NCBI GenBank assembly: GCA_964530135.1
Contig: CAZGXN010000006.1
Span: 5,396 to 69,395, forward strand
Direction: 5' to 3'
Length of the DNA: 64,000 bases
Origin: an uncultured Bdellovibrionales bacterium
GTDB taxonomy: Bacteria; Patescibacteriota; Minisyncoccia; Moranbacterales; UBA1568
The notes beneath the pieces were generated by a model. The model saw nothing but the letters and a program-made list of their open reading frames with translations, did not search any database and was not told where the DNA came from. The first letter of the stretch is position 1, and every line of letters begins with the position of its first letter. Shown here in pieces: positions 3,853-31,910 of the stretch. The position numbers and the translations under genes were made by a program.

Positions 3853-5163
3853 ATGGCCAAAAAACTGTTGAAGAAAAAGAAATCGGTACCCAAGAAGGCA
3901 GTGTCGAAGAAGCGAGCGGTCAAAAAACCGGCCCGCAAGAAGTCGGTCAAAAAGTCCGGATCAGGAAAGCGACCGCGGTCCACTGCACCCAAAAAGCGCA
4001 CCGGAAAGAAATCCGCATCAAAAAAGAAATCTACTTCCAAGAAGCCGGCCTCGGGAAAGCGCTCGGCGCGAGAAGCGCTGGCTCTCAATGCTTTGGAAGA
4101 GCTCATGGTGCGTGGGAAGCAGCGGGGCTTTGTAACCGAGGATGAAATCATTCACATTCTTCCAGACATCGAACAAGATCTCGATAGTCTTGAAAATCTC
4201 TATGAGCAGCTCGAAACTTCAGGTATTCGTATCGTCGGTTCCGAAGAGATGCTGAAGGTCGGAGAGGAAAAGGAAGAAGTCGTCGAGAAAGGCAGGAAGA
4301 AAGATAAGATGATGGACCTGGGGGAAAGCGATGATGCTTCGGACCTCGTTCAGATGTATCTGAAAGAAATTGGCCGCGTAACGCTGCTCACTGGTGATGA
4401 AGAGGTGAAGCTGGCCAAGGGAATCGAAAAAGGGGATCTCGTTGCGAAGCAGCGGCTGACGGAAGCCAATCTTCGTCTCGTCGTCTCAATTGCCAAAAAG
4501 TATGTCGGTCGTTCGCACAACCTCTCACTCCTCGATCTCATACAAGAGGGGAATATTGGTCTTTTTCGAGCGGTTGAGAAATTTGATTATCGCAAGGGGT
4601 TTAAGTTTTCGACCTATGCGACCTGGTGGATTCGACAGGCGATCACCCGAGCTTTGGCCGACCAGTCTCGCACTATTCGCATCCCAGTGCATATGGTGGA
4701 GACAATCAACAAGTATGCCCAGGTAACCCGTCGTCTCGTTCAGGAGCTCGGCCGCGAACCATTGGCCGAAGAGATTGCTACCGAAATGAATATGGAGGTT
4801 GAAAAAATTCGCCATATCCAGAAGATTTCGCAGGAAACTGTTTCGCTCGAAACTTCAGTCGGGGACAATGATGATGATTCAGTGCTCGGGGACTTCATTG
4901 AGGACACTGAAACTGTTATGCCTCATCAGATGGCGGCTCGAAAACTTTTGAAATCTCACATCGGTGCTATCCTCGATGAGCTCACTCCGCGCGAGCAGAA
5001 AATTCTCCGCATTCGTTTTGGTCTCGAAGATGGCGTAACGCACACCCTCGAAGAAGTTGGCCAGGAGTTCGGCGTAACTCGCGAGCGCATCCGCCAGATC
5101 GAAGCCAAAGCACTCGAAAAGATTCGTGAACACGAAAGTCTGAAAAAACTCCGCGATTACTAG
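3853..5163 (+). CDS. rpoD: RNA polymerase sigma-70 factor RpoD with ~75-aa lysine-rich (histone H1-like) N-terminal extension
   Basis: Regions 1.2 to 4 recognisable: [82 protein letters not shown]; lies directly downstream of dnaG. Confidence 0.92.
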
Positions 5164-5269: not shown

Positions 5270-6277
5270 ATGCCGATTATGACATTCTCAAGCGCTAGTA
5301 TGCGGATAGATTTAATCAACACTGTCCTTATTTTGATTGCTGCTGGAGTAGCGCTGATTATGCCCTTTCCATTGTTTCTCTTCGCCTATGCTGTACTCGG
5401 GCCGCTTCACTACCTAACGGAAATATCATGGCTCCATGATCGTTCCTACTTTATTCCGGAAAAGAAAAGCGTTCCGATTTTTCTCGGACTTGGTATCATT
5501 GCTACGCTACTTGTCCTCACGGGCAAGATGCCGTATTGGTTCCTACCAGCTGTGGTCTATATGCTATTTGGCTGGGCCTTCATCCTGACATCGGTCAAAG
5601 CTGGGACTAGGCGCGATCTCTCCATCGCTTTCCTTTTTGTGACGACCGTCCTTTTTATTCTCTTCGAGCCACCGGTTTATATTCTCTTCTTTGCGATTTT
5701 TATCCCAACCCTTGTCCATGTGTTCGTGTTTACGGCAGCCTTTATGCTTTCCGGCGCGCTGAAGTCGCGGAGCATATGGGGCATGACGAGCTTCATTGTC
5801 CTCATAGTGGTCGCTCTAGGGCTGCTTGTCTATGTCCCCAAGCAGTCCTCTTCGCTTTCCCCGTATGTGCTAGAAAGTTATCAACCTTTTGTCTTTATGA
5901 ACGAAACAATGATGGGTCTTCTCTTCGGCGAGGGGAAGACGCGACTGACGGTCGAGGCAGCTGCAGCATCGAGAGCAGGGACGGCGATAATGCAGTTTAT
6001 CGCTTTTGCTTACACCTATCACTACCTGAATTGGTTTTCCAAGGTCCAGGTAATCGGTTGGAACAGTATATCGGTTCGCCGCCGAAGTAGTATCCTGCTC
6101 GTTTGGCTGGCAGCTCTCGGATTCTATGCTTACGATTATCGAGTCGGCGTTCAGGTCTTGTTTCTTCTCAGTTTTTTGCATGTGTTGTTTGAGTTCCCGC
6201 TCAATCATCGATCGTTTTCCGATATTGGAGAAAGCCTCACTCTTCTCATACGGCCATTGTTTTCGCGTTCGGCGTAG
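5270..6277 (+). CDS. polytopic integral membrane protein, function unknown (start uncertain; ORF opens at 5213 inside the rpoD terminator)
   Basis: Eight or more hydrophobic helices in translation; no recognised motif. Confidence 0.45.
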   Translation: MPIMTFSSASMRIDLINTVLILIAAGVALIMPFPLFLFAYAVLGPLHYLTEISWLHDRSYFIPEKKSVPIFLGLGIIATLLVLTGKMPYWFLPAVVYMLFGWAFILTSVKAGTRRDLSIAFLFVTTVLFILFEPPVYILFFAIFIPTLVHVFVFTAAFMLSGALKSRSIWGMTSFIVLIVVALGLLVYVPKQSSSLSPYVLESYQPFVFMNETMMGLLFGEGKTRLTVEAAAASRAGTAIMQFIAFAYTYHYLNWFSKVQVIGWNSISVRRRSSILLVWLAALGFYAYDYRVGVQVLFLLSFLHVLFEFPLNHRSFSDIGESLTLLIRPLFSRSA

Positions 6278-29418: not shown

Positions 29419-29547
29419 GCCCAAAGTATTCTTGTGGTGATGCCACGAGAGGGGACAGTAATAGGGACGGCAGACTCAGCCGAAAGGACTGTCATAGAAA
29501 AAACCACTCTCCAAGAAAGTGGTTTCCTCCTCTATTATATGATCGGA

Positions 29548-29958
29548 CTATTCAACGATCAGAGTACCGAATTGACCCTTGGCTCGGTGGCCAGGCTTGG
29601 AGCAGTAATAGGTGAAGGTGCCAGTTTTGTCAGCCTTGAACTCGATGACAACCTCTTGATTGAGGGGTAATTCTGTCTTGACTCCAAACTCATCAAGTGT
29701 AAAATCATGCCCTCCTTTTGTGGTGGTCGCTCGGATGCGGACTGTGTCGCCTTTCTTTACACGGATTTCTTTGAGTGAGTACCAGACTCCCGTTTCATCG
29801 AAATAGGCGGTGGTGGTGAATTCCTTCACGGATCCAGTCGGTTTCTCGGCGGCCTGATTCAGTGATCCAGTCGGAGCTGTTACCGTGTTGCTGCGCATAA
29901 ACATATATCCACCGAGTGCAACGATGACGATCAGCGCGACCCATACCAGCTTTCCCAT
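29548..29958 (-). CDS. membrane-anchored cupredoxin (plastocyanin/azurin-like blue copper protein)
   Basis: GGHDF...YYCSKPGHRAKGQFG: His, Cys, His ligand spacing of type-1 Cu sites. Confidence 0.55.
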   Translation of the reverse strand: MGKLVWVALIVIVALGGYMFMRSNTVTAPTGSLNQAAEKPTGSVKEFTTTAYFDETGVWYSLKEIRVKKGDTVRIRATTTKGGHDFTLDEFGVKTELPLNQEVVIEFKADKTGTFTYYCSKPGHRAKGQFGTLIVE

Positions 29959-30094
29959 AGGTGTAAGATTATGTACTTAGACTCCCTTGACTCTCTGAGG
30001 AGTACAGCTTCAGTATAGGCTTCTCGGGGATGATTGACAAAAAACGCCCCAGCACTCAGCTAGGGCATTTTCACTCAAAAGCACAAGAACACGC

Positions 30095-30346
30095 TTAGGA
30101 GAGGTGTTTTCCGATGAGTTTCGTCATCTCGAACATATTCACCGTATCCTTGCCAAACACCGCCTTGAGGGCCGCGTCATTGTTGATGTTCCGCTTGTTT
30201 TCCGGATCCTGGAGATTCTTGCTCTTGATGTAGGCCCAGAGCTGCTTCGTCACTTCCGAACGGGGCATCGGCCCAGCACCTACCACGACCGCGAGTTCTG
30301 GGCTGATCTGCATCGGCTTCATGAACGCGGAGTTACTCGTCGCCAT
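30095..30346 (-). CDS. SWIB/MDM2 domain protein
   Basis: ISPELAVVVGAGPMPRSEVTKQLWAYIKSKNLQDPENKRNINNDAALKAVFGKDTVNMFEMTKLIGKHL matches the SWIB consensus. Confidence 0.7.
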   Translation of the reverse strand: MATSNSAFMKPMQISPELAVVVGAGPMPRSEVTKQLWAYIKSKNLQDPENKRNINNDAALKAVFGKDTVNMFEMTKLIGKHLS

Positions 30347-30677
30347 AATTTCCTGCTTTAGGGGTTACGGCTCCCATTATACACCTCTCGGAGGTTTTGG
30401 CTACCCGCTCGGCAGTCAATGGAGCACAAAGAAGTAAAGTATTTGGGCATTCGAACCCATGAGGAGCGGGCAGAGAAGTGTTTTGACCAATAGGCATCAG
30501 AGCGCGATCGACCTTGTTTCATCTGATCTGACGATACTAGAAGAGAGTGTTCCCGAGTTACCGGAGGACGGCTTGCTTCCTTTTTTCCCTCTTGATAGGA
30601 TAACCATGGCTGCATCGGTTGCATGCCATTGTCCAAACGGGCAATTTTTTGTTGGCTTATTTCATATACCCTTTCCT

Positions 30678-31106
30678 ATGTCTCCGCACCGACCAACCAA
30701 TGTGACTGTAAGACGCTCACGCGCTGGCCTCGGACTTTTTGCTGCGACAGCGTTGAAAAAGGGCGAGACAATCATCGAATACATCGGCAAACGGATCCCG
30801 TCTGCGGTCGCGGATACATTGAACAACAGCTATATCTTTACCGTGAATCGCAAAATTGATATTGACGGGAGCCCGCGCTGGAATACGGCTCGCTATGCCA
30901 ATCACTCGTGTCGTCCGAACTGCGAGTCCGTCATCCGTCGTGGCCGAGTTTTCATCGTCGCTCGAAAAAACATCGCGCCCGGGGAGGAACTCACCTATGA
31001 CTATGGCAAAGATTTCTTTAATGAATTCATCAAACCATTTGGCTGCAAGTGTGTGAAGTGCCTCGCAAAACCAGTGCTCAAGAAAAAACATAACTCATCT
31101 ACCTAG
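30678..31106 (+). CDS. SET-domain protein (putative protein lysine methyltransferase) with post-SET Cys cluster
   Basis: GLGLFA, NHSCRPNC, ELTYDYG, C-terminal CKCVKC. Confidence 0.8.
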   Translation: MSPHRPTNVTVRRSRAGLGLFAATALKKGETIIEYIGKRIPSAVADTLNNSYIFTVNRKIDIDGSPRWNTARYANHSCRPNCESVIRRGRVFIVARKNIAPGEELTYDYGKDFFNEFIKPFGCKCVKCLAKPVLKKKHNSST

Positions 31107-31163
31107 CGGCCCAGCCCCTCTCTGATTGACGGAGGCAGCGATTTGTGGGATGCTCTCTGCACT

Positions 31164-31910
31164 ATGAATGAGCCGATCCCTTTTCCTATCCGTATCAATC
31201 GTTACCTCGCTCTCCGAGGTATCGCGACGCGTACGGCGGCAGATGCACTCATCACAGCGGGCAAGGTTTTCATCAATGGGCAGCCCGCCACGCTCGGCAC
31301 CAAAGTACTCGAGGGGGATAGTGTCGAGGTGAAACGCGGTGGCCGAGAACGAGTCTATCGCTATATCGCGTATTACAAGCCGCGCGGTATCATCACCCAC
31401 TCGCCCGAGCGGGGAGAAAAAGCGATCACGGATATTTTTTTTGAGAAAGGCCTCTTTCCGGTTGGCCGACTCGATAAGGCATCGGAGGGACTCATCATCC
31501 TGACCGATGACGGACGGATAACCGAGCGTCTTCTCCATCCGCGCTTCGTACATGAGAAGGAATACGAAGTTATCGTACAAGAGTCTATCTTGCCTGGGGT
31601 CGAAGAAAAACTATTGGCCGGTATCGAGAGTGAAGGCGAATGGTTGCGAGCGCGGCAGGTACAGAAAACCGGTCGCTCAGCGTTGAAGATCATCCTCACT
31701 GAGGGCAAAAAACATCAGATTCGGCGCATGCTCGCCGCCCTTCATCTGACAGTGAAAGAACTGAAACGAGTGCGTATCATGCAAGTCGGCTTGGGGGATT
31801 TGATGCCAGGTGAGGGACGCCGCCTCGTGGGGACTGAACGGGCCACCTTTCTGGCGGACATTGGTCTTGCACAAGCGAATCTGACATCAACCCCGCATCT
31901 GAATACTTGA
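31164..31910 (+). CDS. pseudouridine synthase, RsuA/RluB family (S4 domain + catalytic domain)
   Basis: S4-like N-terminus RINRYLALRGIATRTAADALI; catalytic GRLDKASEGLIILTDDG. Confidence 0.8.
   Translation: MNEPIPFPIRINRYLALRGIATRTAADALITAGKVFINGQPATLGTKVLEGDSVEVKRGGRERVYRYIAYYKPRGIITHSPERGEKAITDIFFEKGLFPVGRLDKASEGLIILTDDGRITERLLHPRFVHEKEYEVIVQESILPGVEEKLLAGIESEGEWLRARQVQKTGRSALKIILTEGKKHQIRRMLAALHLTVKELKRVRIMQVGLGDLMPGEGRRLVGTERATFLADIGLAQANLTSTPHLNT

Follow-up and report, generated by a model that had tools for sequence, protein, structure and literature searches.

SWIB and SET genes side by side in a Moranbacteria genome: two lineage-typical genes probably made adjacent by an indel

Bacterial proteins with SET or SWIB domains are established (PMC6426960, PMC3980110, PMC10117894), and PMC6426960 and PMC3980110 already describe the co-occurrence of the two. 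The closest described systems are those of the Chlamydiae, where a small SET protein (cpnSET/NUE, CT737) is accompanied by small single-domain SWIB proteins (CT460 and Waddlia Wcw_0377) and a topoisomerase I-SWIB fusion (CT643). In this study we analyzed a 64,000-nucleotide stretch of a 75-kb metagenomic contig (CAZGXN010000006.1; ENA ERZ27247837), hereafter the window, in which genes for a SWIB and a SET protein of the same small kind stand next to each other in divergent orientation. The likeness to the Chlamydiae extends to the candidate substrates, which are lysine-rich and H1-like in both cases: Hc1 and Hc2 in Chlamydia and the N-terminal tail of the sigma factor RpoD here. Unlike the Chlamydiae, the organism is a free-living or episymbiotic bacterium of the Candidate Phyla Radiation (CPR) and not an intracellular pathogen of eukaryotes. 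Furthermore, the locus has no type III secretion context, a SWIB-topoisomerase fusion is not seen in the window, and SWIB and SET are loosely linked, in one lineage only. A sequence-only reading of the stretch had proposed that the two genes share a promoter region and that their pairing reflects regulation by lysine methylation. We arrive at a different account as the probable one: these are two independently transcribed genes, both typical of their Patescibacteria lineage, that were made adjacent by an indel.

The SWIB/MDM2 single-domain protein of 83 amino acids (aa) is encoded on the minus strand at 30095-30346. The SET-domain protein, a predicted protein-lysine methyltransferase of 142 aa with a post-SET CxCxxC cluster and a short basic C-terminal tail, is encoded on the plus strand at 30678-31106. 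The genes are divergent, and the spacer between them (30347-30677) measures 331 nt. The reading frames, their orientation and their distance of about 330 nt thus agree with the sequence-only reading, as do both domain assignments, each of which is borne out by a full-length Pfam match. The public gene calls differ from these coordinates: SET is called as 215 aa from an ATG at 30459, which is 73 codons too long (30459-30677), and SWIB as 75 aa, which is 8 codons too short (30323-30346). The length of the SET homologues (130-150 aa) and the conservation at the N-terminus support the 142-aa start, and we consider the longer call over-extended because the extension crosses a conserved non-coding leader hairpin, described below. 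Similarly, 84-aa homologues that align from residue 1 support the 83-aa start for SWIB. Exact-sequence look-ups of the 142-aa SET and 83-aa SWIB proteins in public databases returned zero matches because the public calls start at other codons.

The arrangement of these genes in related genomes carries our main conclusion. We located SWIB and the other genes of the window in 80 genome loci around SET relatives, each extending 6 kb to either side. SWIB lies within 6 kb of SET in 9 of the 80 loci, all of them Moranbacteria-like, and is directly adjacent in 2. In both adjacent cases (L011 and L014) SWIB stands 0.2 kb upstream of SET on the same strand, that is, in tandem. SWIB is also upstream on the same strand in L015 and L019, at 1.1 and 5 kb, while it is upstream on the opposite strand at 4.7 kb in L001-L003, at 3.3 kb in L007 and at 2.2 kb in L023. 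When whole contigs are considered, SWIB and SET share a contig in the window, in these nine loci and in L083-L086, L094 and L095. In L094, a more distant relative, SET is followed by a pseudouridine synthase gene and then by SWIB, convergent on the 3' side; in L095 the two genes are more than 10 kb apart. Direct divergent adjacency was found only in this genome and in a second contig that holds an identical copy of the locus. The adjacency and orientation of the SWIB-SET pair are thus not conserved in related genomes, and the two adjacent cases among the 80 loci are tandem and not divergent.

The closest relatives indicate how the adjacency could have come about. The complete 1.217-Mb genome CP064975.1 and three other contigs each carry copper-resistance genes, a cupredoxin gene, SWIB (on the opposite strand), a T2SSE block and SET; from SET onward the order is SET, pseudouridine synthase, GT2, GtrA, amine oxidase and GT2. 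The T2SSE block of these genomes, about 3 kb long, consists of a T2SSE ATPase and two membrane proteins of 453 and 111 aa. The gene order of the window is that of CP064975.1 minus the three-gene block, and its 331-nt spacer approximates the sum of the two intergenic regions that border the block in the relatives. Adjacency would thus be a matter of this genome being without the ATPase and the two membrane protein genes that part SWIB and SET in its closest relatives. The block, which is absent from the window, occupies 4944-7880 of L083 (CP064975.1) and is also present in L001, L003, L007, L023 and L084-L086; its membrane proteins (about 453 and 111 aa) have no Pfam matches. Within the spacer of the window there is a terminator-like hairpin at 30563-30580 on the plus strand with no plus-strand gene 5' of it, and this hairpin may be a relic of a deletion.

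Outside Moranbacteria, SWIB was near SET in none of 47 SET loci. Conversely, SET was within 8-10 kb of SWIB in none of five distinct SWIB contexts, which represent six loci (L087 and L089-L093), as L091 and L092 share their upstream half and were counted as one context. The T2SSE insert in the closest relatives, the varied order elsewhere and the absence of linkage outside Moranbacteria tell against the proposed SWIB-SET pairing. Both genes are present in related genomes. Clustering of the open reading frames (ORFs) around all 80 SET loci identified no universal SET partner. The neighbours of SET are lineage-specific (P-type ATPase, T2SSE, 3D-domain-like protein, pyridoxal phosphate enzyme and others), and in the other Patescibacteria or Proteobacteria loci no SET neighbour is conserved and the neighbours are mutually unrelated.

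The predicted transcription signals also separate the two genes. The SWIB 5' region (30347-30403, minus strand) carries an AGGA Shine-Dalgarno-like element and a sigma70-like promoter, recognized by promoter scan and by conservation. The promoter, TAGCCA-16-TATAAT (30403-30376), has 10 of 12 consensus matches in the scan and lies 30 nt 5' of the ATG. Positions 30300-30386 are 87-98% identical to the SWIB 5' region of L001-L003, L007 and L023, where this region faces a T2SSE gene, and the conservation stops at 30386. Directly past the SWIB stop codon, RNA folding predicts an intrinsic terminator (30040-30072, minus strand) composed of an A-tract, a 14-bp stem and a U-tract, with a fold of -25.8 kcal/mol (z=-4.8 against shuffles). 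For SET, we propose TTGCTT-17-TAGGAT (30573-30601, plus strand) as a candidate promoter by analogy of position; the assignment is ambiguous, with a weak -35 element, and the consensus scan passed over this candidate. Inspection by eye of the 16 Moranbacteria loci with the leader hairpin found the same layout in about 14: TTGnnn-17-TAnnnT, the hairpin and a T-run, some 25-35 nt, and the ATG. About 170 nt part the promoter-like elements of SWIB and SET, whose evolutionary histories are separate, and this comparison does not support the idea of a shared promoter region. The spacer search found no shared repeat or palindrome, and the repeat search gave short two-copy matches only, with no operator-like element. 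In the tandem loci, SWIB's own bidirectional terminator stands 5' of the SET promoter and leader, which indicates separate transcription units in every arrangement. We propose that SWIB would be monocistronic, with its own promoter and a strong terminator, and that SET would be transcribed from its own promoter through the terminator-like leader and co-expressed with an rRNA pseudouridine synthase.

The leader of SET contains a conserved element of its own. A terminator-like hairpin followed by a T-run (30623-30656, plus strand; stem 30628-30645, ATTGTCC-AAAC-GGGCAAT) stands about 27 nt before the ATG. The consensus is ATTGTCC-loop-GGACAAT, the four inner pairs form in 16 of 16 loci, the loops measure 3-11 nt, and an arm table of the 16 loci shows that some of the stem changes are compensatory. 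A covariance model of the hairpin, R1, was built on 11 loci and run over 1.13 Mb. It gave 17 matches with E<0.1, 16 of which lie directly 5' of SET, including 5 outside the training set; the sole match in the window is 30623-30656. The hairpin was likewise seen just 5' of SET in L001-L003, L005, L007, L008, L011, L013-L015, L017-L020, L022, L023 and L083-L086. An Rfam scan of 29500-31500 (E<=1) returned just a chance snoRNA match of 15.8 bits, and the hairpin is thus without an Rfam family. A second TTGTCC...GGRCAA sequence at 5511-5526 was considered as a copy of the leader and rejected as a chance match, since it falls within an ORF for a membrane protein and lacks a T-run. The gap between the hairpin and the ATG is too short for a promoter, so transcription into SET must cross the terminator-like element. 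This suggests that the hairpin acts as an attenuator, or as a stabilizing or regulatory leader, and it may serve autoregulation of the operon formed by SET and the pseudouridine synthase.

Comparison of loci points to this synthase, and not SWIB, as the consistent operon partner of SET. The S4-domain pseudouridine synthase (RsuA/RluB/RluF type; 31164-31910, plus strand) matches the Pfam families S4 (E=2.4e-08) and PseudoU_synth_2 (E=8.3e-20) and scores 121.5 bits against TIGR00093 (cut-off 109.3). Its scores against the equivalog models for RluF, RsuA and RluB, of which RluF was the best, were all below the cut-offs, which limits the classification to the subfamily level. The synthase gene lies directly 3' of SET and on the same strand in 14 of 33 Moranbacteria-like loci and in L083-L085, L094 and L095, with gaps of 57-130 nt, and this adjacency is both tighter and more widespread than the SWIB-SET link. 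No terminator-like fold was found in the 57-nt gap between SET and the synthase, and the two genes are probably co-transcribed. These observations, together with the conserved terminator-like hairpin between the promoter and the SET ATG, favour the idea that SET acts on the translation apparatus alongside the synthase, as a methyltransferase of ribosomal or RNA-binding proteins, with the hairpin attenuating or autoregulating the operon and SWIB unrelated or peripheral to it. Such a role would fit the weak resemblance of many Patescibacteria SWIB proteins to the eIF2D-type SWIB model PF26291, and yeast has SET enzymes (Rkm1-4) with ribosomal proteins as substrates. Nevertheless, the SET-synthase adjacency is found only in Moranbacteria, with other neighbours in Kaiserbacteria, Paceibacterota and Proteobacteria, and sharing an operon often carries no functional meaning in small, streamlined genomes. 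We therefore regard a dedicated role in translation as unlikely.

Two points weigh against our conclusion that SWIB and SET are independent genes joined by an indel. First, the SET tree has about five clades in which SWIB lies within about 5 kb of SET, and the arrangements there number five or six. As chance proximity is expected at about 1% per genome of about 1 Mb, some selection for proximity is possible. In the neighbour-joining tree the SWIB-linked loci fall into these roughly five clades intermixed with unlinked loci. SWIB and SET are divergent or tandem in these arrangements, in each case either directly adjacent or with an insert between them, or else SWIB is convergent on the 3' side. 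Second, SWIB and SET co-occur in bacteria, notably in Chlamydiae, according to PMC6426960, which cites Aravind et al. 2011.

Such points could be accommodated if SWIB and SET formed a "bacterial chromatin" module, in which SWIB binds the nucleoid, SET methylates lysine-rich DNA-associated proteins such as the RpoD tail, and proximity is selected. Proximity does recur across several clades of Moranbacteria, even where inversions or insertions have intervened or SWIB has changed sides, and both families are abundant in Patescibacteria. There are also precedents, as cpnSET methylates the H1-like protein Hc1, Go1-SET of Methanosarcina methylates MC1-alpha, a DNA-packaging protein of the organism's own (PMC3980110), and ChIP-seq of the Waddlia SWIB protein Wcw_0377 showed binding across the entire genome (PMC6426960). 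The module reading also draws on two features described below, the lysine-rich tail kept by RpoD in nearly all of its nearest relatives and the basic tail of SET, which could tether the enzyme to nucleic acid. In contrast, SWIB and SET never occur in one operon and have a promoter and terminator each; unrelated genes stand between them in the nearest relatives; and their linkage is absent outside one lineage in the loci examined. Furthermore, no fusion protein was found among the best 120 matches of either family, and the RpoD gene lies 26 kb from SET. Weighing both sides, we consider a joint module possible but doubtful. What the loci do describe is a loose neighbourhood confined to Moranbacteria, as could be left by an ancestral synteny in decay; a loose neighbourhood alone does not establish a joint function of SWIB and SET.

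The lysine-rich RpoD tail noted in the sequence-only reading is real. The N-terminal 76 residues of RpoD (gene at 3853-5163; tail at 3853-4080, plus strand) hold 27 lysines, or 36%, and a six-frame scan found no other lysine-rich stretch in the window. The feature is kept in the lineage, with an N-terminal tail of at least 25% lysine in 118 of the 120 nearest RpoD clusters. The tails of relatives are typically 75-130 aa long (median 88 aa) with a median lysine content of 39%, and their sequence diverges fast. Judged by the composition of the tail across these clusters, Moranbacteria have conserved it as an H1-like extension of their primary sigma factor that evolves fast. It constitutes a reasonable candidate substrate pool for SET, and we can only conjecture that SET might methylate it.

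The SET protein itself has the features of an active enzyme. It matches PF00856 over the full model (1-105 of 105; E=2.5e-23, 82.9 bits, cut-off 22.4). Residues G17-L18-G19-L20, Y35, G37, Y52, N75, H76, C78, E104, Y109, C123 and C125 are invariant in 68 homologues, S77 completes the N75-H76-S77-C78 motif, and C128 is kept in at least 90% of homologues. The motifs quoted in the sequence-only reading are all found (NHSCRPNC at residues 75-82, ELTYDYG at 104-110 and CKCVKC at 123-128). The GxG, YxG, NHxC and ELxY/FDY motifs and the catalytic Tyr are likewise there, and none of the catalytic residues is missing on alignment. The CxCxxC cluster is carried by 118 of 120 homologues. Thus the residues of the post-SET zinc site (three Cys and the Cys of NHxC) appear intact, and the site would be expected to bind metal.

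An AlphaFold2 model of SET (pLDDT 86, pTM 0.76) was compared with solved structures by Foldseek, which returned the SET domains of MLL4, MLL1 and MLL3 as the best matches. Across the 20 best matches the TM-score normalized to the query was 0.61-0.68 and the identity 32-41%, and the Foldseek probability was 1.00 for the MLL1/3/4, NSD1, EZH2, SETD8 and vSET structures. The model and the Foldseek matches together predict the SET beta-fold, with the C-terminal segment over the active site in a putative pseudoknot-type topology. By sequence, the best PDB match is KMT2D (E=1.5e-18), followed by KMT2C and then NSD, ASH1L and EHMT2.

The likeness to MLL/SET1 (KMT2) extends over the GxG, YxG, NHSC and ELxYDY motifs and the post-SET cysteine cluster. 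Y107 is presumably the tyrosine of the Phe/Tyr-switch position, going by our alignment and the MLL1 literature. Unlike MLL/SET1, the protein is a bare 142-aa core that lacks the WIN motif, the N-flanking and partner-binding regions and a comparable SET-I insertion. Its post-SET spacing is CxCxxC and not CxCx4C, and WRAD-type partners are absent here. In size it resembles the stand-alone SET domains of about 120-140 aa in PBCV-1 vSET and Methanosarcina Go1-SET. vSET is not known to have the post-SET zinc cluster, is dimeric and acts on host H3K27. Its structure (3kma) is among the Foldseek matches of the window SET, and the sequence likeness of these minimal enzymes is lower than that of the MLL-type domains.

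The basic C-terminal tail of SET covers residues 130-142 (31067-31103) and reads AKPVLKKKHNSST. Basic C-terminal tails, 9-22 aa long and mostly lysine-rich, are found in the 22 closest homologues. More distant homologues mostly end just past CxCxxC (median 3 residues), and some of these also have a basic tail. The tail may be a nucleic-acid tether or a site of automethylation. From the fold and the motifs, we infer that SET would be a catalytically competent, cytoplasmic protein-lysine methyltransferase that depends on S-adenosylmethionine and combines an MLL-like core with a post-SET zinc site. The most plausible substrates are endogenous basic proteins that bind nucleic acids: nucleoid or ribosomal proteins, or lysine-rich tails like the one on RpoD.

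The SWIB protein matches PF02201 over the full model (1-74 of 74; E=8.1e-31, 106 bits, cut-off 25) and is 88-92% identical to Moraniibacteriota orthologues across residues 1-83. Among solved structures it comes closest to the SWIB domain of yeast UAF30 (E=4e-15), and the At5g14170-type and BAF60 SWIB domains are solved relatives as well. Among NCBIfam models it matched only the SWIB tails of topoisomerase I and III fusion models. The SWIB proteins of plant plastids and mitochondria are small, nucleoid-associated and SWIB-only, a topic that is covered in PMC7209962. UAF30 and the plant organellar proteins work in eukaryotic complexes or organelle nucleoids, whereas the window SWIB is bare, with neither a DEK-C nor an H1-like extension. 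By analogy with Wcw_0377 and the SWIB-topoisomerase fusions, it is most likely a small DNA- or nucleoid-associated accessory protein.

Both proteins could alternatively be considered as exported effectors. SET, and possibly SWIB, would then act in the manner of a nucleomodulin on proteins of the host of an episymbiont, as described for NUE, RomA/LegAS4, BtSET and BaSET. All experimentally characterized bacterial SET proteins save cpnSET target host histones (PMC10117894, PMC3980110), and a 2025 paper on Patescibacteria raised a host-directed function of SWIB as a possibility (PMC12455944). The T2SSE ATPase block between SWIB and SET in the relatives would be in keeping with export, and SET does match the NCBIfam LegAS4 model, at a weak score (E=1.3e-08, 34 bits) far under the cut-off of 550 bits. 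On the other hand, signal peptides and additional targeting domains are missing from both proteins. SET also lacks an N-terminal extension, its domain beginning at residue 8, and with the sub-cut-off LegAS4 score and its origin in a metagenome-assembled genome (MAG) of Patescibacteria it does not have the features of a Chlamydia-type nucleomodulin. Both proteins are minimal single domains, strongly conserved and as widespread as housekeeping genes, and the operon of SET also encodes an enzyme of rRNA modification. As far as hosts of Patescibacteria are known, most of them are bacteria, organisms without histones. An effector role thus seems to us very improbable.

The distribution of both families is that of the wider lineage. 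The nearest loci to the window all come from MAGs of Candidatus Moraniibacteriota (Moranbacteria, Patescibacteria/CPR). The SET family comprises more than 2600 clusters, many of them from Patescibacteria. The closest SET relatives are from Moranbacteria (74-85% identity; 141-183 aa, most 141-153 aa), and relatives at 50-58% identity are found in Kaiserbacteria, Paceibacterota and Saccharibacteria MAGs and also in Alphaproteobacteria. The SWIB search gave at least 8000 matches, with proteins of about 84 aa and 76-93% identity across Parcubacteria. The statement that such proteins are best known from Chlamydiae thus holds for the literature and not for the data, where single-domain SWIB and this SET subfamily are very common in Patescibacteria.

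Two further observations concern the relatives of SET. The SET proteins of Alphaproteobacteria (Microvirga, Hyphomonadaceae, Caulobacterales and Methyloceanibacter) are, at 50-58% identity, as close as those of other Patescibacteria classes, and the gene context differs in each of their loci (L044, L050, L058, L061, L065, L066, L071, L073 and L077). This likeness suggests transfer of SET between phyla. In addition, many MAGs labelled "uncultured Bdellovibrionales bacterium" (L006, L009, L011, L013-L015, L018, L020, L023, L024, L027 and L029) carry Moranbacteria-type SET, SWIB and synteny, and their labels are probably wrong.

The genes that flank the pair in the window encode DsbD/thioredoxin, MsrAB, a MerT-like protein, kinases, a pyrimidine-dimer glycosylase, MscL, AHSA1, a response regulator, YdjM, cupredoxin, GtrA, amine oxidase and GT2. 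No compositional anomaly was found across the region. In the complete Moranbacteria genome (L083, 8387-12969), SWIB is beside or near copper-resistance genes (CsoR, a CopA-type P-type ATPase, HMA/DsbD and cupredoxin), and in the Kaiserbacteria loci L091 and L092 (5147-7557) CsoR and CopA precede it by a few genes. In the window, the cupredoxin gene (29548-29958) is the only one of this set still beside SWIB. The nearness of SWIB to copper genes may be a coincidence.

SWIB genes of Patescibacteria have been mentioned earlier (PMC12455944), and our literature search found no paper on the SET domain in Patescibacteria. Two aspects of this study are, in our view, modestly new: that SET and the pseudouridine synthase form an operon behind a conserved leader hairpin, and that both minimal proteins are so abundant among CPR bacteria. 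The window locus adds little beyond these, as the SWIB-SET adjacency is probably a local accident of gene content and the co-occurrence is already in the literature. The operon, the leader hairpin and the lineage-wide lysine-rich RpoD tail each offer an experimental handle.

A bolder combination of the observations would treat SWIB, SET and the synthase of Moranbacteria as a selected neighbourhood, in which a leader-controlled, MLL-like SET methylates endogenous lysine-rich, H1-like tails, such as the one found on almost every RpoD of Moranbacteria, or other basic nucleoid or ribosomal proteins, and SWIB is its DNA-bound partner. We hold this combination to be quite improbable. If true, it would amount to an endogenous lysine methylation system, akin to chromatin marks, in an ultrasmall CPR bacterium. 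So far, research on SET and SWIB proteins of bacteria has treated them mostly as pathogen effectors or as chlamydial curiosities. Minimal SET and SWIB proteins are very common in Patescibacteria, for which most known hosts are bacteria, and this points to endogenous substrates. Proteins as tiny as these could be convenient models for the pre-eukaryotic function of two "chromatin" domains.

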